Virus record (IMG/VR): IMGVR_UViG_3300045988_167582
Length of the DNA stretch: 64,000 nt
Reading direction: 5' to 3' (one strand)
Origin: a virus
A program made the translations under genes and the position numbers. Every line of letters starts with the position of its first letter. Position 1 is the stretch's first letter. Positions 3,711 through 37,475 of this stretch are shown one piece after another. Below the pieces are notes generated by a model. The model was given only the letters and a program-made list of their open reading frames with translations, ran no database searches and had not been told where the DNA came from.

Positions 3711-3735
3711 AATTTTATACAAGGTGGTAGAGAGT

Positions 3736-4179
3736 ATGAGAGCAGTTGGTATTATTCGTAGAGTGGACGACCTCGGGCGCATTGTAATTCCAAAAGAAGT
3801 GCGGCGTTCTCTTCGCATCAGGGAGGGAGACCCGATGGAACTGTTTATCGAGGACGGCGGTGTGGTTTTTCGCAAATATAATGCTCTCGAAGAGGATATG
3901 TTCGACACCATACAAAAAGCAATGAAAGCCGGAGGTCGTAGCTACGCATTGTACGATAGGGATATTAAAAGAGAAAGTTCTCGTGGCTCTGGTTATCCGC
4001 GCAACGTTCCTGATGAGTGGTTCGATAAGCGCGGGGAGTTTACCTATTTAGGTAATGCTGTTTACACCATTTATCGCTATGATGATGTATGGGGCTATAT
4101 TTGCACCGATAGGACAAACGATGATTACATCAGAGGAGTCATATCGATGGCAATCAGTTCTCTTGTAGATGACGCATAA
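3736..4179 (+). CDS. AbrB/SpoVT-family transcriptional regulator
   Basis: N-terminus VGIIRRVDDLGRIVIPKEVRRSLRIREGDPMELF matches the swapped-hairpin AbrB domain. Confidence 0.8.
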   Translation: MRAVGIIRRVDDLGRIVIPKEVRRSLRIREGDPMELFIEDGGVVFRKYNALEEDMFDTIQKAMKAGGRSYALYDRDIKRESSRGSGYPRNVPDEWFDKRGEFTYLGNAVYTIYRYDDVWGYICTDRTNDDYIRGVISMAISSLVDDA

Positions 4180-4192
4180 GGAGGAAACCATA

Positions 4193-4789
4193 ATGGCACA
4201 GAAAATTATTTTACAGCCGGATGAGGTGTGGGATTACTTCGTGGAGCACGAAGAGGAATGCGATGGATGTATGTTTGAAATCGCATCATGCTCCGAATAC
4301 GGAACAGCGGTGTATCTGTCGAGAAGTTCCAAGGGCGTTGGATGTATCACCGTGGAAGCGGACGACCAAGAGGTTTATAACGAGGAAGTTATTGACGCTG
4401 AGGATACAAAAAAGACGGTGCAGAAGGTTTATGACGATTATCTCACGGATAAAGTTATAGAAATTCTGTCTGATTTTGAACCGCAGGAAGACGATACCCT
4501 CCAAGACCAAGAGGATGAAATCGATATGCGTGAGGAAGAACTGGATAGCCTTATCTGGGATTTTGTGATGGGTGTTTTTGGCGGAGACACCTATACGGAT
4601 TTCGATTGTACCGGAGAAGTTCTCGATGACCTGAAAGACCATTTTCTCGAATATATGTACCGTAAACACGGGTTCGATATTTATCGCCCGATGGTTCTCG
4701 AGGACGAGGACGGAACAGAATTTTTTGAGGAATATCCATACGAACATATGGTGTTCGATGACGAGGATAACCCGATGTATAAGGATTGA
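4193..4789 (+). CDS. highly acidic hypothetical protein
   Basis: aaggagg RBS; D/E-rich throughout (e.g. DDTLQDQEDEIDMREEELD, VLEDEDGTEFFEE). Confidence 0.7.
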   Translation: MAQKIILQPDEVWDYFVEHEEECDGCMFEIASCSEYGTAVYLSRSSKGVGCITVEADDQEVYNEEVIDAEDTKKTVQKVYDDYLTDKVIEILSDFEPQEDDTLQDQEDEIDMREEELDSLIWDFVMGVFGGDTYTDFDCTGEVLDDLKDHFLEYMYRKHGFDIYRPMVLEDEDGTEFFEEYPYEHMVFDDEDNPMYKD

Positions 4790-5394: not shown

Positions 5395-5440
5395 AAATCA
5401 ATATCAACCGAAAATTAAATGAATTAAAGGAGAATTGAAC

Positions 5441-5668
5441 ATGGTACAGGTTACTGTAGGTAATAACGTTAAGCGCGAAAAGGTTATCGTCGATACGCAC
5501 GCAACCCTTCGCTCCGTTCTTGAAGATGCGGGTGTGGATTACACTCGCGGTGTGATGCACCTCGATGGTTCTTCACTCAATCCGGGCGACCTTGATAAGA
5601 CCTTTGCCGATTTTGGCATCGGTGAAAAGTGCTTCCTTCTCAATGTCGTTAAGGCTGATAACGCCTAA
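5441..5668 (+). CDS. small beta-grasp / ubiquitin-like candidate (75 aa)
   Basis: aaaggag RBS. The strand-helix-strand pattern (VQVTVGN / KVIVDT / TLRSVLEDAG / VMHLDG / CFLLNVVK) has the size and periodicity of a beta-grasp fold. The C-terminus is ADNA, not GG. Confidence 0.5.
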   Translation: MVQVTVGNNVKREKVIVDTHATLRSVLEDAGVDYTRGVMHLDGSSLNPGDLDKTFADFGIGEKCFLLNVVKADNA

Positions 5669-5686
5669 TCAGTAGACACCCCGGAA

Positions 5687-5712
5687 CCCCGTCATGAAAA
5701 TGACGGGGTTTT
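5687..5712 (+). terminator. intrinsic terminator
   Basis: ccccgtca-tgaaaa-tgacgggg followed by tttt. Confidence 0.7.
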
Positions 5713-5716
5713 ATCT

Positions 5717-5802
5717 GGGGGATTGGCGGAACAGGCAGACGCAATGGACTTAAAATTCATCGCTTTGAAAGCGTACCGGTTCAAATCCGGTATCCCCCAC
5801 CA
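5717..5802 (+). tRNA. tRNA-Leu (anticodon TAA), class II, CCA encoded
   Basis: Acceptor gggggat/atccccc, anticodon arm atgga-cttaaaa-ttcat, long variable hairpin cgctttgaaagcg, T arm ccgg-ttcaaat-ccgg. Confidence 0.9.
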
Positions 5803-5830
5803 AATGAATTTATAAACAAGGAGAGGTTTT

Positions 5831-7306
5831 ATGTTTAGGCAGAAAGTTTGTCAAACGATGATGACTTCGGAGGCTGCTAATAACTTCTTCCAGCACATTA
5901 CGGGTGACAATTTGCACGGAGATGTGAGCTTTGTCTCTACTCTCCGAGCCTTGGTTGCTCCCAGAATGCAGGAAGGTGAGCGACTGAATGTTGTATTCAA
6001 TTCTACAAGATATTCGGCACAGGAAATTTCCAGCGTTCCTGCAAAGAATGCCGTCACAGCCATATTTAACGCCAGCGCTTGGGATGCAGGAACCATTATG
6101 GTTCATAGTTTTGCAAGCCAGTCCCAAGAGGACAACTACGCGTGTCTGGAACTATTGAAGAGCACATTTGAGTCTACCTATTCCGGATGGCATCGCCTCG
6201 AAAAGATTACGGACTTCTTCCGTAAAAGATTCTATGCCCTTTGCTTTATCCATCCGGAAACAAAGCGAGTGGCTCTCTTCATAGACAATCTGGATTTACC
6301 CAAATTGCATTATCTTCAGTGTGCAGTTTTTGCATTTCTCCCGTGGTATTTCGACCCCGAGAAGGGTGTTTCGGAAGAAGAGATGGCGCTTATCGAATCA
6401 CTCAGAGATAAATCTTCTTCAAAGTATGAAGCGTGTATCGCAAGAATTGCGGAAAAATATGATTTCAAAACAGCCCGTGTTCGCCAGCTGCTTGCAGGGT
6501 TTGAAACGAGATTCGAGCGCAGAAAATGCGAAGAACTCAGAGAAAGCATTTCTACAATTGACTTGGAAATCGATAGACTCAGCAATTCAATTTCCCATCA
6601 TCTTATGCAGCGTAGGGACAACGAGGCTAAGCTCCTTGGTTTGGAACTGAAAATCGAGCAGGATAATGGTGGTGAGTCGGAGATTATGGATTACTTCCTG
6701 AGCAACGACAGGTTAATCCTCGAAAGAGTGACGAACTCCGAGATGGTTTTTGTTGTAAAGGCAAATTGCGAGTATTTCGATGAGGATATGGCAAAATCCA
6801 TTATCGATAAGCCTGAGAGCTATGTGTACAGACCGGCTGGCAGAGCTTGTAATGCGTATATCCAGAGCGAGGATATGAAGCGGCTCATGTATGCCATCTT
6901 TATCGACCAAACTGTAAAGCTTCGTTTCTGTGCGGCTTATAGTTTTGACATTGGTTGTCAAAGTGTCGGAGGAATCAGAGGTTATGGCTACGGTGCGGAA
7001 TGTGCAGGGTATATGCCGAATACGCACATCGACAAATTTTCCTGCATGGGAAATTATCAGAATACTATCAACAGAATGCTGAAAGATAACAATTATATCA
7101 GTGCAATCGAACAGTGCATCGCTTCTTGCAAGAGTCTGAATTTTGCGGACAGCACGGTTATGAGCGAGTTTATGTGTTGTATGTACGGGCTTCAGGGGCA
7201 CACCAACGTGAACAACAGATGTCTGGAACTGCCTAACGAACAGATTGTTACACCGAAAGAAGCAGCTAATTGGCTGAGAGAACAGGAGTGTGGCAGCAAT
7301 GAGTAA
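5831..7306 (+). CDS. hypothetical protein (491 aa) with a central coiled coil and a Cys-rich C-terminus
   Basis: aaggagagg RBS; the central segment (ELRESISTIDLEIDRLSNSISHHLMQRRDNEAKLLGLELKIEQ) looks coiled-coil; the C-terminal third has many Cys. Confidence 0.75.
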   Translation: MFRQKVCQTMMTSEAANNFFQHITGDNLHGDVSFVSTLRALVAPRMQEGERLNVVFNSTRYSAQEISSVPAKNAVTAIFNASAWDAGTIMVHSFASQSQEDNYACLELLKSTFESTYSGWHRLEKITDFFRKRFYALCFIHPETKRVALFIDNLDLPKLHYLQCAVFAFLPWYFDPEKGVSEEEMALIESLRDKSSSKYEACIARIAEKYDFKTARVRQLLAGFETRFERRKCEELRESISTIDLEIDRLSNSISHHLMQRRDNEAKLLGLELKIEQDNGGESEIMDYFLSNDRLILERVTNSEMVFVVKANCEYFDEDMAKSIIDKPESYVYRPAGRACNAYIQSEDMKRLMYAIFIDQTVKLRFCAAYSFDIGCQSVGGIRGYGYGAECAGYMPNTHIDKFSCMGNYQNTINRMLKDNNYISAIEQCIASCKSLNFADSTVMSEFMCCMYGLQGHTNVNNRCLELPNEQIVTPKEAANWLREQECGSNE

Positions 7307-8240
7307 GAATATCAAAATCACAGATGAGAGTCTTAATGAAGTACGCAAGGCTTTTGAGGAAGCATTGTCCACGGGAAAGTTCTCCGACGGGAAAATCACT
7401 TTCACAAAAACTCTCGGCATCGTCAATCGAAAGGCTACCATTTTCTTCACTGAGCTTGCTTGGCTCAAGATGCAGACTCTTATACGAGAGTTCGATAAAG
7501 AGGTTGCTTGGCACGGTATCGCCAAGCGCGGAGAAGACGCTTCTAAGGATGAGTATTACATAACGGATATTCTGGTGTATCCGCAGGAAGTGACAGGAGC
7601 AACGGTGAGCACCGACCAAGAAAAATACCAGATGTGGCTTATGAGCCACGATGATGAGGTTTTCAATAACATTCGGATGCAGGGACATTCTCATGTAAAT
7701 ATGGATGTCACTCCGAGTAGTGTGGACACATCGCTCTATGACCGGATTCTTGAGCAACTTGACGACGATATGTTCTACATCTTCATGATTTGGAATAAGC
7801 GCAAAGAAAAGACCATCAAGATTTACGACCTTGCTAAGAATATTTTTTTCGATACTTCGGATGTCACAGTTGAAGTCCTTGAAGATGGAACCGGTATCGA
7901 AAAATTTCTCAATGACGCGAAGGACGCGGTAAAGGACAAGCCTACCACACCGACATCGACATATCAAAGCCCCTATCGTAGTTCTTATGGGTATGGCGGA
8001 TATTATGGCGGATACGGCAGTTCCTACGGAGGCTCTGCAGAAGAGAAAGAGCCAAAAAAGACCGAGTCGCCCAAAGAAACAGCGAGTTCTCAGAAAAAAC
8101 GAAAGGGAAAGCGCAAAGGGAAACGCAAAGGTAAACACGGCGGGGTCAACAATACCTGTGATGAGAGTAAGCAAGTGACTCTTTGGGATGGGTATGATTA
8201 TGACGATATGGATGACCCGTTCTATGCAAGAGGTTATTAA
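7299..8240 (+). CDS. JAB/JAMM (MPN+) metalloprotease-domain protein with a low-complexity tail
   Basis: GHSHVNMDVTPSSVD fits HxHx7Sx2D exactly, with an upstream E (EVAWHG). The C-terminal tail contains SSYGYGGYYGGYGSSYGGS and KKRKGKRKGKRKGK. Confidence 0.8.
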   Translation: MSKNIKITDESLNEVRKAFEEALSTGKFSDGKITFTKTLGIVNRKATIFFTELAWLKMQTLIREFDKEVAWHGIAKRGEDASKDEYYITDILVYPQEVTGATVSTDQEKYQMWLMSHDDEVFNNIRMQGHSHVNMDVTPSSVDTSLYDRILEQLDDDMFYIFMIWNKRKEKTIKIYDLAKNIFFDTSDVTVEVLEDGTGIEKFLNDAKDAVKDKPTTPTSTYQSPYRSSYGYGGYYGGYGSSYGGSAEEKEPKKTESPKETASSQKKRKGKRKGKRKGKHGGVNNTCDESKQVTLWDGYDYDDMDDPFYARGY

Positions 8241-8256
8241 CAGGAGGTGATTTTCA

Positions 8257-8817
8257 ATGACAAGGCAGGAGTTTCTTGACGATGTTTACGATTTCAGAGA
8301 GCTGATGGATTTTTGTTATGATAATGACTGTGGGATTTGCGACGACATCTACGATGATGAGTCGAAGGATGAATATATCAATGAACATCTTTCGGATATG
8401 GCAGATAACGCAGATGACTGGCAAAGTCTCTATCGTACTTTGGATTATATCCCGACCGGGTATGATTACTATCGTTTAGATGATTACGACGATTTCAACG
8501 GTTTGGACGATGACGACTTCGATGACTACAAAAACGATGTGCTCGAGTGGATGGATGATAATGAATACTGGGACGAGGACGAAGATGACGAGGAAGAGTA
8601 TTTCCCTCCGGAAGAAGAGTATAGCGAAGAGGAAGACGACGAAGAGTCATGTGAAGAAGATATGCAGCCTGTCGATGAGCTTTTCAGCTTATGCAGTGAG
8701 CAGCTCAGAGTAATCGATGCAAAAGAAAAAGCCGAAGAGCAGAGGTGCAATGAAGAATTTCTTGCTTTTACAGCGGAAATCGGCGTGGTAGTAAACGAGG
8801 GAGGCAAAGCAGTATGA
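8257..8817 (+). CDS. extremely acidic hypothetical protein
   Basis: caggagg RBS; long D/E runs (DDYDDFNGLDDDDFDDY, WDEDEDDEEEYFPPEEEYSEEEDDEE). Confidence 0.7.
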   Translation: MTRQEFLDDVYDFRELMDFCYDNDCGICDDIYDDESKDEYINEHLSDMADNADDWQSLYRTLDYIPTGYDYYRLDDYDDFNGLDDDDFDDYKNDVLEWMDDNEYWDEDEDDEEEYFPPEEEYSEEEDDEESCEEDMQPVDELFSLCSEQLRVIDAKEKAEEQRCNEEFLAFTAEIGVVVNEGGKAV

Positions 8818-9488
8818 TGGATTTAAGCAAATCTTATGATTTTTTTCAGCCTGAAAAGGACGACGCCCGTATCCATATTGTTGGGTGCGGCTCTGTTGGT
8901 TCCACCATTGCGGAAAACTTGGCTCGCTGTGGTGTAACAAAGATGACCCTGTGGGATTTTGATAAGGTTGAAGCCCACAATATTGTCAATCAGATGTTCC
9001 GACAGCAGGATGTCGGTAAGTTAAAGGTCGAAGCTCTTAAAGATATTCTGAGCGACATCAACCCCGACATCATCGATGATGTCGAACTCAAACCTGACGG
9101 CTGGAAAGGAAGGCTTATGTCCGGCTACATCTTCCTCTGTGTGGACAGTATTGAGCTACGCAGAGAAATTGTCGAGAAGCATATGGATAGTCCATATGTA
9201 AAAGCGGTATTTGATTTTCGTACACTTCTTGAAAGTGCGCAGCACTACGCCGCTGACTGGTCGGATTATAAAATGAAAAAGGACTTATTGAAGTCCATGC
9301 AGTTCTCGCACGAAGAAGCCGCCGTGGAAACTCCAGTATCGGCTTGCGGGGTCACGCTCGGAGTTGCGACGACAGTGCGTGCGGTTTGCGCTATTGGTGT
9401 TGCGAACTTTATCAGGTTCTCCAAGGGTCAGGGCATTAAGAAGTTTATGAACATTGACCTGAGTACATTCATGCTTGACGCTTTTTAA
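8814..9488 (+). CDS. E1-like ThiF/MoeB-fold (Rossmann) protein
   Basis: IHIVGCGSVGSTIAENLARCGV ... LWDFDKVEAHNIVNQMF resembles the GxGxxG plus DxDxV..N..RQ nucleotide-binding core of ThiF/E1 adenylyltransferases. Confidence 0.7.
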   Translation: MMDLSKSYDFFQPEKDDARIHIVGCGSVGSTIAENLARCGVTKMTLWDFDKVEAHNIVNQMFRQQDVGKLKVEALKDILSDINPDIIDDVELKPDGWKGRLMSGYIFLCVDSIELRREIVEKHMDSPYVKAVFDFRTLLESAQHYAADWSDYKMKKDLLKSMQFSHEEAAVETPVSACGVTLGVATTVRAVCAIGVANFIRFSKGQGIKKFMNIDLSTFMLDAF

Positions 9489-9504: not shown

Positions 9505-9758
9505 GACTGTAATGAAATGTGTTTCTTTGAAACAGCTTTTCGCTGTCAGCAAAAGTAACAACTTGAGAGGAAAATGGTAGCCCCAAGGAGGTGTCTTCTT
9601 CGAAGGTGGGGACTGTACACTCCGGAAATCACGAGGACATTAACCATCAGATGTAAGAATATTCCATTGTCCCGCAATAAGTCATCAAATAAGAAAGCCA
9701 TCAGTGCCGGTTCCCAGACTCGAATCGACGCCCGCTTCTATCTATAATGATTACAGTC
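9505..9758 (+). ncRNA. retron-like structured RNA element, copy A (directly upstream of the RT)
   Basis: Ends pair (gactgtaat 9505-9513 with attacagtc 9750-9758); G at 9514; conserved hairpin cttttcGCTGTCAGCaaaag at 9536-9555; G at 9749 precedes the 3' strand. Confidence 0.6.
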
Positions 9759-9779
9759 AAACATAAAGGAGGTATCCGC

Positions 9780-10922
9780 GTGGTTTATATCACAGTAAAG
9801 CAACCACCAATGTATAGACAAATGACATTGGAAGAGCTTCTTTTTGGAACGGAAATTAAACCTTCCATAGTAAACAACAACATAACAAACACGCATACAT
9901 ATGTTGTTGACAGAGTAAACGATAAATATCGCAAGCGAATCGATGTCGATAAGATGATTGAAAAGCTTGCACAATTCAATCAGCAAACAGAATCGCTCAG
10001 AGTGCATCAGCCACGCACAGATTTATATTATACATTCCATATTCCTAAGAAAAGCGGCGGGCTTCGGCGTATCGATGCTCCGAACGATGAGCTGAAGAAC
10101 GCACTTAGAAATTTGAAAGAGATATTCGAGAATGATTTCGGATGCCTGTATCACACAAGTGCGTTTGCATATATAAAAGGACGCGGAACAATTCCTTCGG
10201 TTAAACGACATCAGGCAAATGAGTCCAAGTGGTTTGGAAAATATGACCTTTCTAACTTCTTTGGAAGTACAACGCCTGACTTCATTATGAAGATGTTTTC
10301 AATGATTTTCCCTTTCTCGGAAATCGTTAAGACGAGTGATGGTAAGGCAGAACTCAGTAAAGCACTCGACCTTGCCTTTTTGAACGGAGGTCTTCCGCAG
10401 GGAACGCCGCTTTCGCCGACGCTGACAAACATTATGATGATTCCGATTGACCATAAGTTATCCAATGGACTGCGTAACTTCAATAATCAGTCCTTTGTTT
10501 ACACAAGGTACGCGGATGATTTTCTTGTATCCTCAAAATACGAGTTTAAGTTTATGGATGTAGAAAAATTCATCGTTGATGTGTTGGCAGAGTTTGGTGC
10601 CCCGTTCACAATCAAGACAGCCAAAACCAGATACGGCTCGTCTGCCGGTTCCAATTGGAACCTCGGAGTTATGCTGAATAAGGATAACAACATCACAATC
10701 GGTCATAAAAAGAAAAGACAGTTTCAAGCAATGCTCAGTTCATATGTCCTTGATAAACAGAACGGGCATCCGTGGGATAGAACCGATATCCAGACCTTAG
10801 AGGGTTATCGGAATTATTATCGCATGGTAGAGGGAGAGACTATCGATAAAATTGTCGAGCACATTGGAGAGAAGTATCATATTGATATAGTTGCTTCCCT
10901 TCATGACGATTTACGAACATAA
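9780..10922 (+). CDS. reverse transcriptase, retron/group-II-like RVT_1 type, stand-alone
   Basis: YYTFHIPKKSGGLRRIDAPNDELK, KYDLSNFFGS, GLPQGTPLSPTLTN, YTRYADDFLVSS. GTG at 9780 lies 7 nt after aggagg; alternative starts are ATG 9747 (inside the RNA stem) and ATG 9810. Confidence 0.9.
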   Translation: MVYITVKQPPMYRQMTLEELLFGTEIKPSIVNNNITNTHTYVVDRVNDKYRKRIDVDKMIEKLAQFNQQTESLRVHQPRTDLYYTFHIPKKSGGLRRIDAPNDELKNALRNLKEIFENDFGCLYHTSAFAYIKGRGTIPSVKRHQANESKWFGKYDLSNFFGSTTPDFIMKMFSMIFPFSEIVKTSDGKAELSKALDLAFLNGGLPQGTPLSPTLTNIMMIPIDHKLSNGLRNFNNQSFVYTRYADDFLVSSKYEFKFMDVEKFIVDVLAEFGAPFTIKTAKTRYGSSAGSNWNLGVMLNKDNNITIGHKKKRQFQAMLSSYVLDKQNGHPWDRTDIQTLEGYRNYYRMVEGETIDKIVEHIGEKYHIDIVASLHDDLRT

Positions 10923-10928
10923 CAAAGA

Positions 10929-11194
10929 TTTCTGTAATGAATATCCATTTTTATGGGGCTTTTTGCTGTAAGCGGAAGTGACGCGATGGTAAGGGAAAAG
11001 ACGCAGGGAACTGGCACGCAAATCAATCCCTCCTCGCAGAGATGACCAGCGAACAAATCAATACACAAGAAATGAGCTGTTGCTACACAACAGTCCAATC
11101 CGTCAGCAAGCAACAAATACACCTGCACCTCGCTTCCGAGGCGCCTGAGCCGCACCGGTATCCCGCCTGCTGCTGACATTGTAGATTACAGAAA
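10929..11194 (+). ncRNA. retron-like structured RNA element, copy B
   Basis: tttctgtaat 10929-10938 pairs with attacagaaa 11185-11194; G at 10939; hairpin ctttttGCTGTAAGCggaag at 10959-10978; G at 11184. Confidence 0.6.
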
Positions 11195-11204
11195 CAACTA
11201 AAAT

Positions 11205-11472
11205 GGATAAGCTGATAATGCAATTGCTTTGCCTATGCAAACGCGCTCTTTGCTGTCAGTGAGAGTAACAACTTGAGAAGAAAATAGAGGATGAAGAAGA
11301 CGACAGAATAAAATTAAAGAATATATCAAGTAATCCAAATAACTTGGTGTAGACCCTGAAGACATTGTCCCACAACAACACACTGAACTATCCTCTGGAT
11401 TTCCTCATCTGGAACACCGGTACCTGCATCCCAGTTTTGTGCAGCTGTTCCCTTGTAGATTATCACTTATCC
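11205..11472 (+). ncRNA. retron-like structured RNA element, copy C
   Basis: ggataag(c)tgataat 11205-11219 pairs with attatcacttatcc 11459-11472; G at 11220; hairpin ctctttGCTGTCAGTgagag at 11246-11265. About 40 nt after the hairpin is near-identical to copy A. Confidence 0.6.
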
Positions 11473-11914
11473 AACAAAAGAATTGTTCCTTTTAAGGAGC
11501 TCCCGAAAATCTATTGTAACACAATAGGTTTTCGAGAATTCTACAACCGCCGAGGTTGTAAAACGCTATATTGCTCTGATGCCAGAGCTTTATAAACCCT
11601 CCCGAAAGCGCACCGGCAAACTATGAATTGGCAATCGACTCATAGGTAAGAAACGACAGGTAATGAGCCGACCTATCTGGATTGCGTCCAGACAACGCAA
11701 GTTGGTCGAAATTCGGGAGATATATTTTTAATGCTTTAAGACGAGGTGAAAAATATTCGCACGGATATACTTGAAAGAAAGACGGAAATCCTCAAATCCT
11801 CAATTGGATAAATGAGAAAAAGACCAAAGCTTTTATAAGTCGTCAATTATTGTGTCCAAATTGTCACGCGGTACAAAATCTCATGATGATTCGAGGCGAA
11901 TTTATAATAAGAAT

Positions 11915-11987
11915 GTGGGCTAAACGAGAACATAGTTAATAATGTGCCCATTAGGGCGTGTAAGTTCAAGTCTCATTGCCCACACCA
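11915..11987 (+). other. degenerate tRNA-like sequence (possible tRNA pseudogene)
   Basis: 73 nt ending in acca; acceptor gtgggc/gcccac and a TTCAAGT T-loop are present, but I cannot fold a proper D arm or 7-nt anticodon loop. Confidence 0.3.
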
Positions 11988-11990
11988 CTT

Positions 11991-12065
11991 GGCGCTATCG
12001 TCTAATCGGTCAGGACATCGCTCCTTCAAGGCGGGAATATGGGTTCAACCCCGTTAGCGTCACCA
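11991..12065 (+). tRNA. tRNA-Glu (anticodon TTC), CCA encoded, non-canonical details
   Basis: Acceptor ggcgcta/tagcgtc, D loop with GG, anticodon loop ccttcaa. By my fold, position 33 is C and the T-loop has 6 nt. Confidence 0.6.
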
Positions 12066-12070
12066 TTTAT

Positions 12071-12147
12071 GTGGGTATAGCTCAACTGGTAGAGCACCTC
12101 TCTTTTAATGAGGGAGTCCGGCGTTCGAGGTCGCCGTACCCACACCA
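12071..12147 (+). tRNA. tRNA-Lys (anticodon TTT), CCA encoded
   Basis: Acceptor gtgggta/tacccac, D arm gctc-aactggta-gagc, anticodon loop cttttaa. T stem cggcg/cgccg has an 8-nt loop by my fold. Confidence 0.75.
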
Positions 12148-12238
12148 TGCGTGAGTTATGGTTTTCTCACGCATTCTCTCTGCTACCCTCCCGTCATGCA
12201 CGGGAGGGTTAACTAATAATTCAGGAGGTAGGTTTAGT

Positions 12239-16034: not shown

Positions 16035-16838
16035 GTGTTAAAAGTTAATTGCAAACCGGTTGAATTAAACAAATTTCCGGACGGTACTTTTTTGATTAAG
16101 GAGAAACCGTCCGGCGATAGGGCTCTTATCTCGTGGAAGTTTGAAAATAATGAGGAGCTTGTTGCACTGATTTATATTACTCATCATCTGCGTGCCCACG
16201 GCGTTAAGACAATTCATTTGTTTATGCCGTATATCCCCAATGCACGGCAGGACAGGGTAAAAACAGATGAGGATGTATTTACACTCAAATATTTTGCTTG
16301 GGTTGTTAATTCTTTGGAGTTTGATAAGGTCATGGTGGTAGACCCCCATTCATCTGTATCTGAGGCTTTGATTGAGCGTATAAAGATTATATCTCCCGCC
16401 GATTTAATCAACATCGCTTACAATCGTGTCTGTGAGGAATGCTCGTGTGGAGATAATGATGTCTTGATGTTCTATCCTGACGAAGGCGCGATGAAACGAT
16501 ATTCCGGAATGATTTCGGCGCCCTATGCTTTCGGCATTAAAGAGCGCGACTGGGCTACTGGAAAGATTAAAGGATTATCTGTTTTTGAGGGTGAGAGCTC
16601 CGTCAAAGGCAAGAACATCCTGATTGTTGATGACATCAGTAGTCGAGGCGGAACCTTCTACCACAGCGCCAAAAAACTTAAAGAACTCGGCGCTGAGAAG
16701 GTATTTCTTTATGTAACGCACTGTGAAAACACAATCCTCGAAGGCGAGGTTTTATCCAGTGGGCTGATTGAGAAGGTTTATACCACGGACAGCCTGCTTA
16801 CGATAAAACACGAAAAGATTGAGGTGATGGAGCTGTGA
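16035..16838 (+). CDS. ribose-phosphate pyrophosphokinase (Prs)-family protein; possibly an Adps-type enzyme
   Basis: GTG start; NILIVDDISSRGGTFYHSAKKLKELGA is the PRPP-synthetase/PRTase ribose-phosphate loop. Confidence 0.8.
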   Translation: MLKVNCKPVELNKFPDGTFLIKEKPSGDRALISWKFENNEELVALIYITHHLRAHGVKTIHLFMPYIPNARQDRVKTDEDVFTLKYFAWVVNSLEFDKVMVVDPHSSVSEALIERIKIISPADLINIAYNRVCEECSCGDNDVLMFYPDEGAMKRYSGMISAPYAFGIKERDWATGKIKGLSVFEGESSVKGKNILIVDDISSRGGTFYHSAKKLKELGAEKVFLYVTHCENTILEGEVLSSGLIEKVYTTDSLLTIKHEKIEVMEL

Positions 16839-18310
16839 TTAAAATGAATCCAATGCTTTTGATTGACTTTTATAAAGCCGTTCACGCCGAAATGCTACCG
16901 AAGCACATGACAAAATCGGTATCCTATTATACCCCTCGTATGAGTCGAGTGAATCGCTGGGATAAGGTCGTCATGTTCGGTTTGCAGGGATTTATTAAGA
17001 CATATCTCATCGATTACTTCAATGAGGAGTTCTTTGCGAAACCTTTTAAGACGGTGATGGCTGATTATCAGCGAGTAATGGACGCGTCTCTTGGAAAGGG
17101 CATTTATGGTATGAAAAAAATCGAAAATCTCCATAAGCTTGGCTATCTTCCGATTGAGATTGTCGCCATTCCAGAGGGCACCCGTGTTCCGATGCATTGC
17201 CCAATGTTTGGAATCACAAATACACTCCCTGATTTTGCTTGGCTTCCCCAGTCTCTCGAAAGCCTCATCTCCGCTGAGAGCTGGCATCCTATGCTGGCTG
17301 CTACCGTAGGATACACCTACAGAGAAATCGTAAATCATTATTACGGTTTAACTTGTGATGACAACATTCCTCGAGCAAAGGCGCTTGGCGCGTTTGATTT
17401 TCGAGGCGAAGAAAGCTTGGAGTCTGCCATTAAAGCCGGAGCAGGGTGGTGTATGTCATTCCTGAATACAGCAACAGTCCCTGTTATTCCGTATTTGGAG
17501 AGTGTATATAATTGTGACTGCACTAAGGAGCTTGTGGCTTTTGGCAGCCCGAGTACAGAGCACTCTGTTATGTGCTCGAACTATGCGGTTGATGGTGATG
17601 AAATCACACTACTCAGACGGCTACTCACGGAGATTTATCCCAATACCAGTTTCTCCGCCGTGCTTGACTCATATGATTACTGGAATGTAATTGACAATAT
17701 TCTTCCGCAAATCAAGGATGAGATTCTTGCGCACAATGGATGTATGTTAATGCGCGGTGATTCCGGTGACTGCGTAGAGGTTGTGACAAAGACGGTTTTC
17801 AAGCTCTGGGGAGAATTCGGCGGTACAATTAACAGTAAGGGGTACAAGGTACTTGACCCCCATGTAAAGGCTATCTACGGAGACAGCATTACCGTTCAGC
17901 GCTGTGAGGAGATTTACAAGATTTTGATGGGGCACGGATTTGCCTGCTCCAATGTCGCTCTTGGCGTCGGTTCTTTCTCTTTTCAGTGTATTGAAGAAGA
18001 CGGAATATTAAAGCCATTTACGAGAGACACATTTAGTTCCTGTATTAAGGCAACCTACTGCGAAATTGACGGGAAGCCTCTCCCAATTTTCAAAAACCCC
18101 AAAGACGGTGGATTCAAAAAGAGTCAAAAGGGGTGCTGTGTGGTTTACAAAGACAACGATAACGGACTCTGTTATAAGGACGAGTTTACTTGGGACGAAG
18201 CATATAGTGATTCACGAAATATGCTTGTACCCGTGTTTAAGGACGGCGTAATGACAAAGGAGTTTACTCTTGAAGAGGTCAGAGCCAATCTGCATGGAGG
18301 TAATTTCTAA
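16835..18310 (+). CDS. nicotinamide phosphoribosyltransferase (NAMPT/NadV)-family protein; possibly Namat-type
   Basis: N-terminal LLIDFYKAVH and the overall length and pattern fit the NAMPT family; 4-nt overlap with the Prs-like gene. Confidence 0.8.
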   Translation: MIKMNPMLLIDFYKAVHAEMLPKHMTKSVSYYTPRMSRVNRWDKVVMFGLQGFIKTYLIDYFNEEFFAKPFKTVMADYQRVMDASLGKGIYGMKKIENLHKLGYLPIEIVAIPEGTRVPMHCPMFGITNTLPDFAWLPQSLESLISAESWHPMLAATVGYTYREIVNHYYGLTCDDNIPRAKALGAFDFRGEESLESAIKAGAGWCMSFLNTATVPVIPYLESVYNCDCTKELVAFGSPSTEHSVMCSNYAVDGDEITLLRRLLTEIYPNTSFSAVLDSYDYWNVIDNILPQIKDEILAHNGCMLMRGDSGDCVEVVTKTVFKLWGEFGGTINSKGYKVLDPHVKAIYGDSITVQRCEEIYKILMGHGFACSNVALGVGSFSFQCIEEDGILKPFTRDTFSSCIKATYCEIDGKPLPIFKNPKDGGFKKSQKGCCVVYKDNDNGLCYKDEFTWDEAYSDSRNMLVPVFKDGVMTKEFTLEEVRANLHGGNF

Positions 18311-19131: not shown

Positions 19132-19290
19132 ACCCACAATGTAGATTGATTGCAAATTGAGTATTTATACATATGTGCAGTCGCTCGTCGCTGTTAGTGC
19201 GAGTATGAAATTGAAAACGGTTCTCCGGAAAAGCACAACCCATAAGGCGTTCTGCGTCCGTGCACGCCTTCTGAGTTACGGATTGTGGGT
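19132..19290 (+). ncRNA. retron-like structured RNA element, copy D (shortest)
   Basis: acccacaat 19132-19140 pairs with attgtgggt 19282-19290; G at 19141; gtagattgattgc box; hairpin ctcgtcGCTGTTAGTgcgag at 19184-19203; G at 19281. Confidence 0.55.
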
Positions 19291-19301: not shown

Positions 19302-19416
19302 GCCGATGTAGTTTTAAGCTGCGATAAAGAGCTGAGCCTTTTCAGTGACTGCGTATGAGGGTAAAACTTGCTCAGGATGTGTGAGTAGAATGCAGGTTCA
19401 AGTCCTGCCGTCGGCA
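19302..19416 (+). other. 115-nt tRNA-like element without encoded CCA
   Basis: 7-bp acceptor gccgatg/cgtcggc and a perfect T arm gcagg-ttcaagt-cctgc. The middle holds a 6-bp stem ctgagc/gctcag enclosing 32 nt instead of a normal anticodon arm. Confidence 0.4.
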
Positions 19417-19497: not shown

Positions 19498-19715
19498 AAA
19501 TAGGAGAGCTATACTCCGAGGCACCCTTGGGGTCTGGAGCAACAAGGAAAAATAACGTCCCCAGAATGGTTTGCGGTAGTCAGAAGAAAACCGCCGAAAA
19601 CCGAAAGGTTTGGAGAGCAAAAGTGTTGGATAGGTCGGCACCCCACATGGCATTAGAGGCGTGGATAAGGACAAGGCGTGGAAATCTGCGGAAGCGCGAA
19701 AAACCACAGTTATTT

Positions 19716-22961: not shown

Positions 22962-23255
22962 ACTTGTAATGTAGATTGCTATCTTGCATAGCGCTTCTCG
23001 CTGTAAGCAGAAGTATCGCATTGGTGGGAAATAGAACAGGGGATGACGACCCTGTAAGCCTCACTCAGGCGAGCTAATCGCCGTCAGTGAAGCTCAAAGA
23101 CAGACAACCAATCAAAAGAACATCCAAACGCATTGTGTAGCAACGCGAATCACCCAGCAAAACAGTCAACTAACCATATGAAACAGAGGTTCAGTTGGGC
23201 AGGTATCTATAGTGCAGCGATTCATGATGCGGCAATGTAATATAAGATTACAAGT
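22962..23255 (+). ncRNA. retron-like structured RNA element, copy E
   Basis: acttgtaat 22962-22970 pairs with attacaagt 23247-23255; G at 22971; gtagattgc box; hairpin cttctcGCTGTAAGCagaag at 22994-23013; G at 23246. Confidence 0.55.
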
Positions 23256-24446: not shown

Positions 24447-24689
24447 TAATCACAATGTAGATTGATTGCTTTCAGGTTTAATACATATACAGGCAATCAC
24501 TCCTGCTGTCAGCAAGAGTATCAAGATGAGTCTTGCACTTCGGCTGGCGGACACACAATTTGCGAGCAAGCTCTAAGGAGCTTGCTCGTGTTCTTTGAAT
24601 CCCACGGATTCAAAGAACTGCCAGCCGAAGTGGCACTTATAGGTACAACAAATAAGTTCAAGGAACCTATTTGTTACAGATTGTGATTG
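24447..24689 (+). ncRNA. retron-like structured RNA element, copy F
   Basis: (t)aatcacaat 24447-24456 pairs with attgtgatt(g) 24680-24689; G at 24457; gtagattgattgc box; hairpin ctcctGCTGTCAGCaagag at 24500-24518; G at 24679. The interior has 11-13 bp helices. Confidence 0.55.
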
Positions 24690-24720: not shown

Positions 24721-26946
24721 ATGAGAGTTCTCTTGTTATTAAGAGGCAGCGCTGGGTGCGGGAAATCCACATGGATTGAGCAAAACGGTCTCAAACCGTA
24801 TACCTTATCGGCAGATGACATTAGAATGATGTGTTCAAGTCCGGTCTTGAATGTTGACGGGAAAGAGGAAATCAATCAAAACAATGACACTGCTGTATGG
24901 AGTACACTCTTTAAGCTGCTCGAGCTGCGTATGCAGAATGGTGAATTTACGGTAATTGATGCTACCAATTCCAAAACGTCAGAAATGAACCGTTATAAAG
25001 AGCTTTGCTCTTCTTATAAGTACAGAATTTATTGCGTTGATTTCACTGACATTCCTATTGAAGTCACAAAGGAAAGAAATTTGCAGAGGGTCGAGATGAA
25101 ACAGGTGCCCGAGTCTGCAATTGACAAAATGTATGCTCGCTTTCAGACTCAAAAAATTCCGTCCGGTATTACAGTAATTAAGCCCGATGAACTCGAAAAA
25201 GTTTGGATGCGAAGAATCGACTTGTCCGAATACAATAAAGTCCACGTGATTGGAGATATTCACGGTTGTAACACTGCTCTCCAGACATATCTCGGTAGAG
25301 AAATTAAGGAAGATGAGTTTTACATCTTTACAGGGGACTATGTTGATAGAGGACTTGAAAATGCTGAGGTTGTGCAGTTCCTGCTCTCGATTTACGAGAA
25401 GAAAAATGTATGCCTTCTTGAAGGGAATCATGAAAGATGGCTGTGGATTTGGTCAAACGACGGAGTAAGCAAACCCAAGGAGTTTGAGTTTGTAACAAAG
25501 ACGCAGCTCGAAAATGCGCGGGTAAAGAAAAAGGATGTTCGTCGGTTATACCGTAGAATTGGGCAGTGCGCTTACTTTTCGTATGGAGAGAACGTTTATC
25601 TCGTAACTCATGCAGGCTTAAGCACTATTCCTGATAACCTGACCTTTGTTTCAACCGCGCAGATGGTTAAAGGAGTCGGAAGTTACAACGATTTTGAAGC
25701 CGTAGAAAAGGCTTTTGATAAAAACACTGCACAGAATTGCTATCAAATTCATGGGCACAGAAATACGAAACAGCTTCCAGTTAGAGCAAGCGAAAGATGT
25801 TTCAATCTCGAGGGACGAGTAGAGTTTGGCGGATGCCTTCGTTGTGTTGACTTACATCGGGACGGGACTATGGAAACTTCCGAAATTCAGAACACTGTAT
25901 TCAAGGCGCCTGATGAGATTCCGAAACCTGCAGCCGTATCTCATCAGACAGTTGGCGACGCTATTATCGCTCTCCGTCAGAACCGATATGTTCAGGAAAA
26001 GAAATACGGGAATATCTCTTCATTTAACTTCACCAAAACAGCGTTTTATGACAAGATTTGGGACGAGCAAACAACAAAAGCCCGTGGGTTATACATCAAT
26101 ATCCCCGAACAGCGCGTCGTTGCCCGTGCATACGACAAGTTTTTTAATATTAACGAACGCCCCGAAACGAAGCTCGATATGCTCCAGTACAAATTGAGTT
26201 TCCCCGCGACAGCCTATGTCAAAGAAAACGGATTTTTGGGTATCGTTTCCTATAACGATGAAGATGAATCGCTGTTCGTAACAACGAAATCTTCTCCGGA
26301 TGGGGATTTTGCCGGTTGGCTTAAAGATATGCTCTACGAGAAGTATTCCAAGGAAACACTTGAGGCGATTCGCTCTTTTTCCAGAGACAATAATGTCTCG
26401 TTTGTCTTTGAGTGCGTCGATATGAAAAACGACCCTCATATCATCGATTATGATGCAAGCAAACTGTTCTTGCTTGATATCGTATATAACGAAATGGCAT
26501 ATCGCAAGTTTAGCTTTGAGCAGCTTTGCGAATTTGCGGACAAGCATGGAATTACTCATAAGGAGAAAGCGTTCGTGCTTGAAACTTGGCAGGAATTCTT
26601 CGACTGGTACTACAAAGTTATCGATGAGGATTATAAGTACAACGGTCGAAATATCGAGGGCTTTGTTATCGAGGACTCCAACGGCTATATGGTCAAGCTG
26701 AAGCTTACCTATTATAACTTCTGGAAATTTATGCGCTCAATTTCTCACGAGGCAATTCGCAACGGGTACATTAGCGGTCGCCGCACATCGGCATTAACTA
26801 CACCGTTGGCGAATCAGTATTACAGTTGGGCTAAAACTCTCCATGATACAGAAGACCGAGATGCAGTTCCGAAGGATATTTGTACTTTAAGAAAAATGTT
26901 CTACCAGACGGATATTGGCAGACAATTTGCCGAGGAGGATACATAA
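24721..26946 (+). CDS. trifunctional Pnkp-type RNA repair enzyme (P-loop kinase, metallophosphatase, ligase/adenylyltransferase)
   Basis: LLLRGSAGCGKST (P-loop); VIGDIHGC ... TGDYVDRG ... LEGNHE (calcineurin-like); AYVKENGFLG (KxxG nucleotidyl-transfer motif I) in the C-terminal domain. Confidence 0.8.
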   Translation: MRVLLLLRGSAGCGKSTWIEQNGLKPYTLSADDIRMMCSSPVLNVDGKEEINQNNDTAVWSTLFKLLELRMQNGEFTVIDATNSKTSEMNRYKELCSSYKYRIYCVDFTDIPIEVTKERNLQRVEMKQVPESAIDKMYARFQTQKIPSGITVIKPDELEKVWMRRIDLSEYNKVHVIGDIHGCNTALQTYLGREIKEDEFYIFTGDYVDRGLENAEVVQFLLSIYEKKNVCLLEGNHERWLWIWSNDGVSKPKEFEFVTKTQLENARVKKKDVRRLYRRIGQCAYFSYGENVYLVTHAGLSTIPDNLTFVSTAQMVKGVGSYNDFEAVEKAFDKNTAQNCYQIHGHRNTKQLPVRASERCFNLEGRVEFGGCLRCVDLHRDGTMETSEIQNTVFKAPDEIPKPAAVSHQTVGDAIIALRQNRYVQEKKYGNISSFNFTKTAFYDKIWDEQTTKARGLYINIPEQRVVARAYDKFFNINERPETKLDMLQYKLSFPATAYVKENGFLGIVSYNDEDESLFVTTKSSPDGDFAGWLKDMLYEKYSKETLEAIRSFSRDNNVSFVFECVDMKNDPHIIDYDASKLFLLDIVYNEMAYRKFSFEQLCEFADKHGITHKEKAFVLETWQEFFDWYYKVIDEDYKYNGRNIEGFVIEDSNGYMVKLKLTYYNFWKFMRSISHEAIRNGYISGRRTSALTTPLANQYYSWAKTLHDTEDRDAVPKDICTLRKMFYQTDIGRQFAEEDT

Positions 26947-30073: not shown

Positions 30074-30675
30074 TGAATGTAAAGATAAGTAGCGGAAATT
30101 CAAAAATGGGAGCAATCCCAAGTGTCTCATTACCAGCCGGTGTTACTTGCCGCCAAGATTGCGAGTGCAGTAAGAAGTGCTACGCCAAGCGGTTAGAACG
30201 GATGAGACCTTCGGTGCATCAGGCATATCAGCATAATTACGATTTGCTAACCCATGATTCGGATACATATTGGAGAGAAGTCGAGGCATCAATTATGATG
30301 TCTCGATTTTTTAGATATCATGTTTCCGGGGACATTCCGGATAATGTATACCTCGCACACATGATTGAAATTGCAGAACGTAATCCGCATTGCGAAATGC
30401 TGTGTTTCACAAAAAAGTATAATCTCGTTAATGACCATCTTGATTTTGGCGGCACCATTCCCAAAAACCTACACATCATTTTCAGCGGCTGGCGCGGCAT
30501 GAAAATGGTTAATCCATATAACCTACCGGAAGCTCATGTCCGTTACAGGGACGGTACGACTACAGCCCGTGAAAATGCGAAACCGTGCGGCGGGAACTGC
30601 GCGGAGTGCGCAATCACAGATGGAGGGTGTTGGGCGGCAAAGCACGGAGAACAAGTGGTTTTCAACGAACACTAA
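30073..30675 (+). CDS. Cys-rich hypothetical protein (possibly Gp88-like family)
   Basis: SLPAGVTCRQDCECSKKCYA near the N-terminus and CGGNCAECAITDGGCW near the C-terminus. The family name is from memory only. Confidence 0.6.
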   Translation: MNVKISSGNSKMGAIPSVSLPAGVTCRQDCECSKKCYAKRLERMRPSVHQAYQHNYDLLTHDSDTYWREVEASIMMSRFFRYHVSGDIPDNVYLAHMIEIAERNPHCEMLCFTKKYNLVNDHLDFGGTIPKNLHIIFSGWRGMKMVNPYNLPEAHVRYRDGTTTARENAKPCGGNCAECAITDGGCWAAKHGEQVVFNEH

Positions 30676-30691
30676 CCAAGGAGGCATTCTT

Positions 30692-31543
30692 ATGAGTAAC
30701 ATAAAAGACAGTCTCGGAGACCGCATGAAAGGGTACGAGAATGTATCTCGGAATTATTTAACTCGCAGAATTCCGGCGATTATTCGTATTGACGGAAAGG
30801 CTTTTCACACATTTACGAGAGGTATGAAAAAGCCGTTTGACCGTATCTTAATGTCTACAATGCAGGATGTTATGAAATACCTTTGTGAGAATATCCAAGG
30901 ATGTGTGTTCGGGTATACTCAGTCGGACGAAATTACGCTTGTTCTTACCGACTATGAGAAAATTACGACCGATGCGTGGTTCGGATACAATATTCAGAAA
31001 ATGTCAAGCATCGCCGCCAGTATGGCTTCGGTTGCGTTTAATAAGTTTTTCTACAAGGCGATTGACGATTACGCCAATACTGATGAAGCCCTTTCATATT
31101 TAATCTCCGAAGACGAAGAAAAGAAGAAAGAGATAAAATGTTATCTTTCAACTCTACACGGTGCTTTAAGCAAAGGTGCGGTATTTGACGCGAGAGCTTT
31201 TTCAATTCCTAAAGATGAAGTTTGCAACTGCTTAATTTGGCGGCAGCAGGATGCTACACGAAATAGTATTGAAGCAGTGGGGCAGGCATATTTCAGCCAC
31301 AGTGTTTTACATAAGAAATCCTGCAACATGATTCAGGAAATGCTCTGGAGCCAAAAGAATATCAACTGGAACGATTTCCCGACGGACTGTAAGCGCGGCA
31401 CTTGTTGCTACAGACAGCCGTCAACTGAATACATCGAAACAAAAACGGGCGAGTTCATTGAGGTTTCTCGCAATCGATGGACAATTGATAAGGACATCCC
31501 GATTTTTACACAGAACAGAGCTTTCATTGAAAAATGGATTTAG
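30692..31543 (+). CDS. Thg1-like 3'-5' nucleotidyltransferase (tRNA-His guanylyltransferase family / TLP)
   Basis: aaggagg RBS; LGDRMKGYE ... IIRIDGKAFHTFTRG ... GYTQSDEITLVL are characteristic Thg1/TLP motifs. Confidence 0.8.
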   Translation: MSNIKDSLGDRMKGYENVSRNYLTRRIPAIIRIDGKAFHTFTRGMKKPFDRILMSTMQDVMKYLCENIQGCVFGYTQSDEITLVLTDYEKITTDAWFGYNIQKMSSIAASMASVAFNKFFYKAIDDYANTDEALSYLISEDEEKKKEIKCYLSTLHGALSKGAVFDARAFSIPKDEVCNCLIWRQQDATRNSIEAVGQAYFSHSVLHKKSCNMIQEMLWSQKNINWNDFPTDCKRGTCCYRQPSTEYIETKTGEFIEVSRNRWTIDKDIPIFTQNRAFIEKWI

Positions 31544-37462: not shown

Positions 37463-37475
37463 CAGAGGTGCCCTT

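Follow-up and report, generated by a model that had tools for sequence, protein, structure and literature searches.

This work concerns a putative multi-template retron carried by a large gut phage. The stretch of DNA analyzed, referred to here as the window, is the whole of a 64,000-nucleotide (64-kb) sequence from the IMG/VR virus record IMGVR_UViG_3300045988_167582, and all element coordinates given below refer to it. A gene for a retron-clade reverse transcriptase (RT) of 380 amino acids (aa) lies at positions 9780 to 10922 on the + strand, accompanied by six copies of a structured element that resembles the noncoding RNA (ncRNA) of retrons. Copy A stands directly upstream of the RT, copies B and C follow in tandem right after it, and copies D, E, and F are located 8 to 14 kb downstream; all six are on the + strand, as are the neighboring genes. 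A first-pass annotation, made from the sequence alone, had described three elements. Those three (A, B, and C) are present exactly where it placed them, and the window holds three more: E was located by a search for the stem plus apex, D by a mismatch-tolerant motif search, and F through a 19-nt identity with E. A profile search with nhmmer recovers all six.

The RT is a protein with one recognized domain. Its open reading frame (translation of 9747/9780 to 10922, + strand) contains the motifs IPKKSGGLRRI, LPQGTPLSP, and YADD, and RVT_1 is its sole Pfam domain (E = 2.3e-18), with no domain fused to it. These features had been read correctly in the first-pass annotation, which had also called the RT stand-alone; that description holds for the protein and fails for the locus, where a conserved gene cassette lies directly upstream. 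The start codon is probably the GTG at 9780, since homologous RTs begin with M(F/V)YITV and a ribosome-binding site (AGGAGG, 9767 to 9772) precedes this codon by 7 nt. The other available start, an ATG at 9747, would overlap the 3' stem arm of copy A; with the GTG start, this arm falls outside the RT gene.

Searches with PADLOC, with NCBIfam, and against the sequences of solved structures agree with the earlier retron reading in placing the RT nearest to retron RTs. PADLOC ranks RT_II-A first (1.9e-47) and RT_I-A second (3.9e-41), followed by more retron RT models. The best NCBIfam model is retron_St85_RT (4.8e-52, 177 bits), far above the models for the Ec67 fusion, group II introns (4e-22), Drt2 (1.5e-10), and Drt3a; as 177 bits falls below the curated cutoff of 235, the RT is best described as a related lineage rather than as a member of the St85 family. 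Among solved structures, the top nine sequence matches are all retron RTs (Ec83, Ec78, St85-family, Ec67, and Kva2), led by those of Ec83 and Ec78 and followed by that of Ec86. The signature regions of retron RTs can be traced in altered form. In a HMMER alignment, the NAKIH of the Ec83 RT (region X, NAXXH) aligns with SVKRH of the phage RT; the H is invariant in 11 members of the phage clade, and the N-A is replaced by (S/A/C)-(V/I). In region Y of RT7, the VTG of the Ec83 and Ec78 RTs aligns with NLG, in which L306 and G307 are invariant across 11 clade members and the residue before them is N or C. According to Mestre et al. (2020, PMC7736814), conservation peaks at the H in the NAXXH signature (between RT2 and RT3) and at the G in the VTG signature; the VTG triplet (RT7, region Y) is found in "most" retrons. 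The N terminus carries about 65 residues more than retron RTs do, and this extension is kept within the clade; in one relative, L002, a further stretch of about 75 aa is inserted in the RT behind the N-terminal region (about 4290 to 4520). As judged from its sequence, the RT is best classed as a divergent lineage that falls either among the retron RTs or next to them.

The six elements range from 159 to 294 nt and share a common plan. The two ends pair as arms (a1 and a2) of a closing stem; a G follows a1, a variable hairpin (hairpin 1) comes next, then a conserved hairpin (hairpin 2) with the loop TGTNA, then a divergent payload, and finally a G that precedes a2. Hairpins 1 and 2 together make up the conserved 5' handle. 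Hairpin 2 is built from five pairs, a bulged pyrimidine, two further pairs, and the TGTNA loop. The unpaired G at the foot of each arm, recognized already from the first three copies, is found in all six, and the ends indeed differ between copies and yet remain complementary (A, 9505 to 9513 with 9750 to 9758; B, 10929 to 10938 with 11185 to 11194; C, with a bulge).

Copy A (9505 to 9758) comprises a1 at 9505 to 9513, G 9514, hairpin 1 at about 9520 to 9534, the hairpin-2 loop TGTCA at 9544 to 9548, G 9749, and a2 at 9750 to 9758, and its payload contains a small hairpin, ATTGTCCCGCAAT, at about 9666 to 9678. Scored with a covariance model of the 5' handle, it reaches 71.2 bits (E = 5.9e-12). 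It occupies the canonical msr-msd position directly upstream of the RT and ends 21 nt before the RT start. Copy B (10929 to 11194; 52 bits, E = 4.9e-8) begins 7 nt past the RT stop codon, with a1 at 10929 to 10938, G 10939, the hairpin-2 loop at 10967 to 10971, G 11184, and a2 at 11185 to 11194. Spaced 10 nt from B, copy C (11205 to 11472; 58.4 bits) has a1 at 11205 to 11219, G 11220, the hairpin-2 loop at 11254 to 11258, G 11458, and a2 at 11459 to 11472; its closing stem consists of 7 + 7 bp with one bulged C. Copy D (22962 to 23255; 59.8 bits, E = 1.2e-9) occupies the gap before a Band_7/SPFH gene and consists of a1 at 22962 to 22970, G 22971, the hairpin-2 loop at 23002 to 23006, G 23246, and a2 at 23247 to 23255.

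Copies E and F differ from these four in hairpin 1, which is short in A, B, C, and D and long in E and F, where it contains a conserved ATACATA and is joined to more structured payloads. Copy E (19132 to 19290; 27.4 bits, E = 0.005), at 159 nt, lies just upstream of a tRNA cluster (a1, 19132 to 19140; G 19141; hairpin-2 loop, 19192 to 19196; G 19281; a2, 19282 to 19290). Copy F (24448 to 24688; nhmmer E = 4.9e-4) lies directly upstream of a gene for a kinase-phosphatase-RNA ligase (a1, 24448 to 24456; G 24457; hairpin-2 loop, 24507 to 24511; G 24679; a2, 24680 to 24688), and its payload forms a long, nearly perfect branched hairpin like that of a classical msd. Elements of the long-hairpin-1 subtype, both in the window (19141 to 19182 and 24457 to 24499) and in related loci (L008 at 20544, L010 at 14097, L012 at 12649, and L018 at 5811), begin with AAUG-UAGAUUG, and the copies in relatives are located away from the RT. 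The ATACATA feature may serve as a second recognition feature.

Statistical support for these structures was sought at several levels. The hairpin-2 motif occurs four times in the window, compared to zero expected from 100 shuffles. The handle covariance model, run on both strands of the 64 kb, picks out five copies (A, D, C, B, and E) with E values from 6e-12 to 5e-3 and no further site at E < 0.6 on either strand. Covariation was scored over the closing stem and hairpin 2 in a set of 27 distinct elements from the window and related phage contigs. In this set, 98.8% of 432 cells are paired, 14 of the 16 pairs show changes on both sides, and the covariation score is 0.671 versus 0.261 in shuffles, with none of 500 shuffles reaching the observed value; sliding the partner by 1 to 3 columns leaves only 35 to 52% pairing. 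For the closing stem alone, double changes are seen at eight of nine pairs, with 97.9% of cells paired, and the apical two pairs of hairpin 2 switch from G-C to A-U and from C-G to U-A. The earlier claim of covarying stems is thus borne out on a much larger sample.

Complementarity had served to set the limits of the closing stem, so the test was repeated with the handle as its only anchor. The 8-mer preceding the anchor G is matched by an exact reverse complement 196 to 327 nt downstream in 31 of 53 distinct elements, compared to 0 to 1 of 53 for control 8-mers at six offsets. A G stands immediately before the complement in every one of these exact-stem elements (31/31), and the anchor G after a1 is present in 53/53. 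Unguided folding with RNAalifold of nine copies located upstream of an RT likewise yields both hairpins and the closing stem, with compensatory changes at 17 of 27 pairs. Folding energies are less uniform: z-scores are about -1 for A and B, -2.2 to -2.5 for C, E, and D, and -10.65 for F. Given the values for A and B, the case for the element structure is built on covariation and not on energy.

The payload, which had been described as divergent and A/C-rich, is clearly the former; the bias in composition is only mild (A.32, C.24, G.21, and T.22, versus.31,.19,.24, and.27 in the window). Payloads are poorly conserved overall, and positionally equivalent copies from different phages could not be aligned except in the handle and over the final ∼10 nt. 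When the window is compared in 50-nt bins to L001, a relative with 99% RT identity, the payload is 55 to 90% identical, most RT bins are 90 to 100% identical (one is 84%), and the handle bin is 100% identical. Copy A differs from its L001 counterpart by a compensatory A-U to G-C change in the small payload hairpin, from AUUGUCCCGCAAU to GUUGUCCUACAAC. In a strict search, this hairpin recurs in about one-third of short-type elements, 71 to 102 nt from a2 (one at 54 and one at 122); it was therefore rejected as a universal feature and is regarded as recurrent rather than defining. It may mark where copying stops.

Several searches were aimed at what the payloads might encode or match. Short-word blastn of all payloads against the 64-kb window returned only self matches and the shared handle, so no template/variable-repeat pair of the kind found in diversity-generating retroelements (DGRs) was seen within it. 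No match for the RT region, element D, or element F was retrieved from 50,697 GenBank phages by blastn at distant sensitivity. Among 44 nonredundant payloads, k-mer enrichment detected no shared motif, only words of the recurrent hairpin (TTGTCCC and CACAACA) and weak A/C-rich words. Longest stop-free runs, compared to those of shuffles on both strands of 50 elements, revealed scattered weak excess and no consistent open frame; endless open reading frames of the Neo type were rejected, as the frames are inconsistent across elements and strands.

The same arrangement is widespread. The RT has 5,024 database homologues at E ≤ 1e-20, among them a large clade at 67 to 75% identity, many members of which are found on contigs of 112 to 121 kb. 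Dozens of related phage contigs of 64 to 124 kb carry the same RT with several co-oriented elements. Relatives were taken from IMG/VR, GenBank, metagenome, and metagenome-assembled genome (MAG) loci. The first-pass annotation had proposed a covariance model and a search of related phages; such a model matches 65 sites in related loci from IMG/VR, GenBank, and metagenomes, together with 13 in MAG loci. In every locus with both an RT and an element, the elements lie on the RT strand. Typically, one element stands 5' of the RT, one to three follow in tandem 3', and others are located kilobases away; relatives have three to four elements per 10 to 20 kb. MAG bins point to Lachnospiraceae, Roseburia, or Ruminococcus as candidate hosts.

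More distant relatives keep this architecture with other handles. At 56 to 57% RT identity (L003 and L004), the loop is AUUGUAAAU; at 41% (GenBank MT835544), it is GGUUAAACC; and in relatives with 46 to 48% RT identity, the RT is directly preceded by stems with flanking G residues, CACTTAAA/TTTAAGTG and TGCATAAA/TTTATGCA. Handle variants differ between lineages (GCUGUNAGC, AUUGUAAAU, and GGUUAAACC). As RT lineages at 41 to 57% identity keep the architecture with other handle loops, handle and RT change together, a pattern consistent with coevolution of the RT and its RNA.

Elements in RT-less phages, which had been named at the outset as an outcome that would speak against a retron, did not emerge as common: wherever the contig could be judged, elements occurred only together with the RT. 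In IMG/VR, 16 of 17 real element-bearing contigs have the RT, and for the remaining one (L022), the stretch examined did not cover the RT region. Bacterial and archaeal genomes totaling 596 Gb were also scanned, and 14 pattern matches emerged: five loci with a model match and of judgeable size, all of which carry the RT and a ThiF gene; one model match on a 1.7-kb contig too short to judge; and eight chance matches lacking a model match.

Two further features were observed beside the RT in relatives. In L010, an RNase H (Cauli_VI plus RNase_H; 11520 to 12161) follows right after the RT and its downstream element. In L018 (about 1790 to 1835), L032, L033, L035, and L036, an intrinsic-terminator-like hairpin (CCGCCAC...GTGGCGG followed by a T run) lies immediately upstream of a1, about 20 to 25 nt before the priming G and between the ThiF gene and the first element. 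Its presence hints that the ncRNA-RT unit of this sublineage may be transcribed or processed separately from ThiF.

The cassette upstream of the RT consists, in order, of genes for a ∼490-aa protein, a JAB protease, usually an acidic protein, and a ThiF/E1 protein; wherever a relative's sequence extends far enough upstream, the cassette is found ahead of the RT, even at an RT identity of 41%. In the window, its first gene (5831 to 7306, + strand) encodes a conserved 491-aa protein of no known fold: none of 879 homologues has a Pfam domain; the protein itself has no Pfam, NCBIfam, or PHROG match and no sequence match among solved structures; and its confident model (predicted local distance difference test [pLDDT], 86) has no fold match among solved structures beyond nucleotidyltransferase-like ones at a probability of ∼0.2. 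In BFVD it has one match, an uncharacterized phage protein. The second gene (7290 to 8240, + strand) encodes a JAB/MPN+ metalloprotease domain (residues 1 to about 215) with a low-complexity Gly/Tyr-rich and Lys/Arg-rich tail. The JAB motif HSHx7SxxD is invariant in 27 homologues, and the AlphaFold model (pLDDT, 74) matches Rpn11, CSN5, and BubCD in Foldseek (E = 1e-6 to 1e-4). In most relatives, the gene for a highly acidic 186-aa protein (8257 to 8817, + strand, in the window) separates JAB from ThiF; in L002, it is found downstream of the RT. The last gene (8814 to 9488, + strand) encodes a ThiF/E1-like adenylyltransferase of 224 aa (Pfam ThiF, 1.8e-23) and directly adjoins element A on its 5' side in all relatives whose upstream sequence is long enough. 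Its best matches among solved structures are UBA5, MoeB, UBA1, TcdA, and Cap2; it also matches the E1 parts of Cap2-like defense proteins in PADLOC and the anti-phage 6A-MBL cap2_3 model in NCBIfam. A 77-aa reading frame (5435 to 5668) weakly resembles DUF2604, a ubiquitin-like family, over its full length (E = 0.015); we treat this match as a lead only. The interval from 5435 to 9488 thus has the makeup of a ubiquitin-like conjugation-type cassette directly upstream of the RT; no E2-like protein was recognized in it.

Elsewhere, the window represents a large phage's early and metabolic arm, with no sign of a temperate lifestyle in the part examined. It includes seven tRNA genes; a gene for NAD+ salvage (NAMPT, nicotinamide phosphoribosyltransferase), to which the syntenic genes of L008 add a ribose-phosphate pyrophosphokinase-like protein, an NAD synthase, and an isochorismatase-family protein; genes for tRNA and RNA repair (the kinase-phosphatase-RNA ligase, a CCA-adding enzyme, RlaP, and Thg1, a Thg1-like 3'-5' polymerase); and replication and nucleotide genes (DNA ligase, Pol III alpha, a DnaB-type helicase, and an anaerobic ribonucleotide reductase). 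Genes of counter-defense type, among them those for NAMPT and the repair enzymes just listed, are dense at 16835 to 18310, 24721 to 26946, 30536 to 31543, and 37449 to 39840, and elements D, E, and F lie among them. Promoter and terminator signals around the RT-proximal elements are no commoner than in shuffles, from which these copies appear to sit inside polycistronic transcripts.

Other features of the window were recorded in passing. A suppressor tRNA with the anticodon UUA, reading the UAA stop (ARAGORN; Rfam tRNA, 59.2 bits), is encoded at 12071 to 12147, 6 nt after a tRNA-Glu and about 600 nt after element C. Recoding of UAA is not general, since the RT, ThiF, and nearby genes end in TAA where their homologues end. 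Between element E and a tRNA-Thr lies a 115-nt tRNA-like sequence (19302 to 19416; Rfam, 31.8 bits, just above the gathering score) that ARAGORN did not call; an acceptor stem and a T arm are clearly visible in it, and its surplus length points to an insertion. Two regions beside tRNA genes are noncoding, 11473 to 11990 (about 520 nt, with strong local hairpins, e.g., 11501 to 11537) and 19498 to 19715, and neither matches any Rfam family or retron-like element. A full-length RAGATH-16 RNA (81.4 bits versus a gathering score of 65.6) is located at 153 to 225; this motif class is linked to self-cleaving ribozymes in phages. Finally, a 151-aa protein encoded at 3724 to 4179 has an N-terminal MazE/AbrB-type antitoxin domain (1.2e-11).

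The explanation that we favor, with moderate confidence, is a phage-borne retron with many templates, in which one retron-clade RT serves a family of dispersed msr-msd-like ncRNAs. According to this proposal, a1 would pair with a2 in the transcript, and the RT would recognize the handle, which is the sole sequence-conserved part of the element and varies from one RT lineage to another. DNA synthesis would then be primed by the 2'-OH of the G that follows a1, a residue whose presence is what the analysis shows, with copying beginning just 5' of a2 and running into the variable payload. RNase H, either that of the host or, in some relatives, one encoded beside the RT, would trim the template. 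An infected cell could in this way contain up to six different branched RNA-DNA molecules (multicopy single-stranded DNAs [msDNAs]) made by one enzyme. We infer cDNA synthesis by the phage RT, the 2'-5' branch, and msDNA production from the likeness to retrons; two points speak for feasibility, namely, that engineered Eco1 arrays operate with one RT and that L010 encodes an RNase H next to its RT.

What the single-stranded DNAs would do is the weakest step of the proposal. Because the module is surrounded by counter-defense genes (NAD+ salvage, tRNA and RNA repair, and tRNAs) and needs many diverging products, we lean toward a role as decoys, sponges, or scaffolds in conflict between phage and host or between phages, perhaps in concert with the conserved JAB/E1 cassette. 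We consider a classical abortive-infection retron, or sequestration of an effector, less likely. In its fullest form, which we put forward only tentatively and consider rather doubtful, the proposal is that a family of gut phages of about 115 to 120 kb uses its retron offensively: a diversifying ncRNA panel would yield several single-stranded DNAs that neutralize or misdirect host immunity (e.g., as decoys for nucleases or sensors), perhaps with the RT-linked ubiquitin-like/JAB/E1 module.

A number of observations weigh against a many-template retron. The RT stays below the curated St85 cutoff, as noted above, and lacks literal NAXXH and VTG motifs, having SVKRH and NLG instead. No known retron effector adjoins it in searches with Pfam, PADLOC, and NCBIfam. 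In the handle-anchored set, most of the elements lacking an exact 8-mer complement have stems that are 6 to 7 bp long, contain wobble pairs, or are bulged, and for about 8 of the 53 handle matches, no a2 is detectable. The payloads of A and B are no more stably folded than shuffles and lack the long msd hairpin typical of retrons. As for a counter-defense role, the argument draws on the neighboring genes only.

One alternative is a classical tripartite defense retron carried by a phage, in which RT-msDNA complexes would restrain a toxic effector, the upstream cassette, and the system would exclude competing phages or kill the cell under superinfection. This alternative stays alive because the JAB/E1 cassette is fixed beside the RT, in every relative with enough upstream sequence and to 41% RT identity, and the resemblance of its ThiF protein to Cap2-like E1 parts (PADLOC) and 6A-MBL cap2_3 (NCBIfam) would suit a defense function. 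It would also be in line with the finding that about 75% of retrons have an associated effector (PMC8632793) and that retrons are common in prophages (PMC8867640). Nevertheless, we regard it as unlikely: no known retron type has E1/JAB partners, a literature search found no paper combining "retron," "ThiF," and "JAB," and sequestration needs one msDNA rather than six divergent ones. Moreover, the surroundings are counter-defense and replication genes of a large phage, and the terminator-like hairpin between ThiF and the first element in some relatives argues against strict co-expression.

If the elements were structured RNAs that bind the RT or another factor and are not reverse transcribed (processing or stability modules, regulators, or small-RNA scaffolds, with the closing stem as an RNase III-type site), the position of three copies far from the RT and beside tRNA and RNA-repair genes, the lack of promoter or terminator signal above chance near the RT-proximal copies, and the poor conservation of payloads would all be readily accommodated. 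The strict G/G flanks, however, would be useless for processing and match the retron priming geometry exactly; in addition, the elements co-occur only with a retron-clade RT, and one of them always holds the msr-msd position 5' of it, so we judge this alternative to be distinctly improbable. It is harder still to view the elements as rolling-circle templates of the defense-associated RT 2 (DRT2) type that make a new gene, or as DGR- or recombineering-like donors that rewrite a target gene. The stem does bring the template ends together, as rolling-circle copying needs, and a few elements have unusually long open frames; yet these frames are inconsistent across elements and strands, the Drt2 model gives 40.8 bits versus a cutoff of 390, and a donor finds no second related payload copy in the 64-kb window and no match among GenBank phages. 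We consider this very improbable. Least credible is spread of the elements within the phage genome as DNA akin to miniature inverted-repeat transposable elements, unrelated to the RT. Multiple dispersed intergenic copies with terminal inverted repeats of 9 to 15 bp invite the comparison, but the repeats differ between copies and stay complementary, whereas an end recognized by a transposase would be conserved; all copies have a single orientation, with transcription; no target-site duplications are visible at the flanks; and the internal hairpins covary at the RNA level, G-U pairs included.

Retrons are known as bacterial defense systems of one RT, one RNA, and one effector. Should the offensive reading be true, the system described here would be the first retron with a viral, nondefensive function and the first natural retron array. 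It would reverse the usual direction of retron biology, in that viruses, too, would make programmed single-stranded DNA. It would also supply a compact RT with naturally orthogonal closing stems and a shared handle, properties that multiplexed retron editing now must engineer. The fixed linkage to a JAB protease and an E1 protein points to an unexplored tie between reverse transcription and ubiquitin-like conjugation.

Among known systems, the closest are retrons of types II-A and I-A (St85/Sen2, Ec86/Eco1, Ec78/Eco7, and Ec83), to whose RTs the phage RT is nearest by both profile and solved-structure searches. These retrons likewise have an ncRNA immediately upstream of the RT, with an a1/a2 stem and a hairpin-rich 5' part followed by a template part. 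The Ec86 ncRNA, 100% identical to a sequence in 48 complete Escherichia coli genomes where it lies beside a "retron St85 family effector" gene, reads a1 (TGCGCACCCTTA), G, body, G, a2 (TAAGGGTGCGCA); all six phage elements have this a1-G...G-a2 layout, in agreement with the retron geometry that had been suggested from the first three. In contrast to these retrons, the phage has three to six or more ncRNAs per RT, in two subtypes and some of them many kilobases away; its RT is about 65 aa longer at the N terminus and reads SVKRH and NLG where retron RTs have NAXXH and VTG; its elements are 159 to 294 nt long with mostly weakly structured payloads; and the host replicon is a large phage. Retrons as usually delimited have one ncRNA per RT and, in about 75% of cases, a cognate effector of a known type; here there are six elements, no NDT, ATPase/HNH, or other known effector, and instead the JAB and ThiF/E1 genes with neighbors of unknown function.

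Other retroelements are further removed. DRT2 (UG2) also pairs a single-domain RT with a structured ncRNA of about 250 to 300 nt whose template ends are brought together; it differs in RT lineage (the score of 40.8 bits is from model NF041746) and in its endless open frame, and the G/G-flanked stem of the phage elements is a retron feature. The DRT2-style alternative raised in the first-pass annotation is accordingly disfavored by both the Drt2 score and the lack of a consistent open frame. A group II intron was rejected (TIGR04416, 78.8 bits versus a cutoff of 300; no group II Rfam match even at E ≤ 10), as was a DGR (no second payload match in the 64-kb window, and an RT that profiles as retron rather than DGR). 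No Rfam family covers any element at gathering thresholds, nor at E ≤ 10 or E ≤ 5. Retron-type RTs are also annotated in large Staphylococcus and Listeria phages and in prophage-like phages of Klebsiella and Pseudomonas, at 24 to 30% identity to the phage RT; the Klebsiella examples are ordinary defense retrons, since they adjoin a St85-family effector.

Full-text literature searches retrieved no report of a phage retron with several ncRNAs, nor of a retron linked to ThiF or JAB; going by these searches, the layout of one RT with several ncRNA copies in a widespread phage family has not been described before. Two published systems come near it from different sides. Stand-alone (msr-msd)-RT cassettes occur in retron RT clades 2 and 11 (Mestre et al. 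2020, PMC7736814) and resemble the phage system in combining a retron RT and an ncRNA with no recognized effector. They are described as single and located in bacterial genomes; carriage by a phage, dispersed ncRNAs, and E1/JAB linkage do not appear in PMC7736814, which contains zero occurrences of "ThiF" and of "two ncRNA." Engineered retron arrays ("multitrons," based on Eco1) demonstrate that one RT can serve many ncRNAs (bioRxiv 10.1101/2023.07.17.549397). Those arrays are synthetic, with identical handles and designed donors, whereas the phage array is natural, and its closing stems have diversified between copies.

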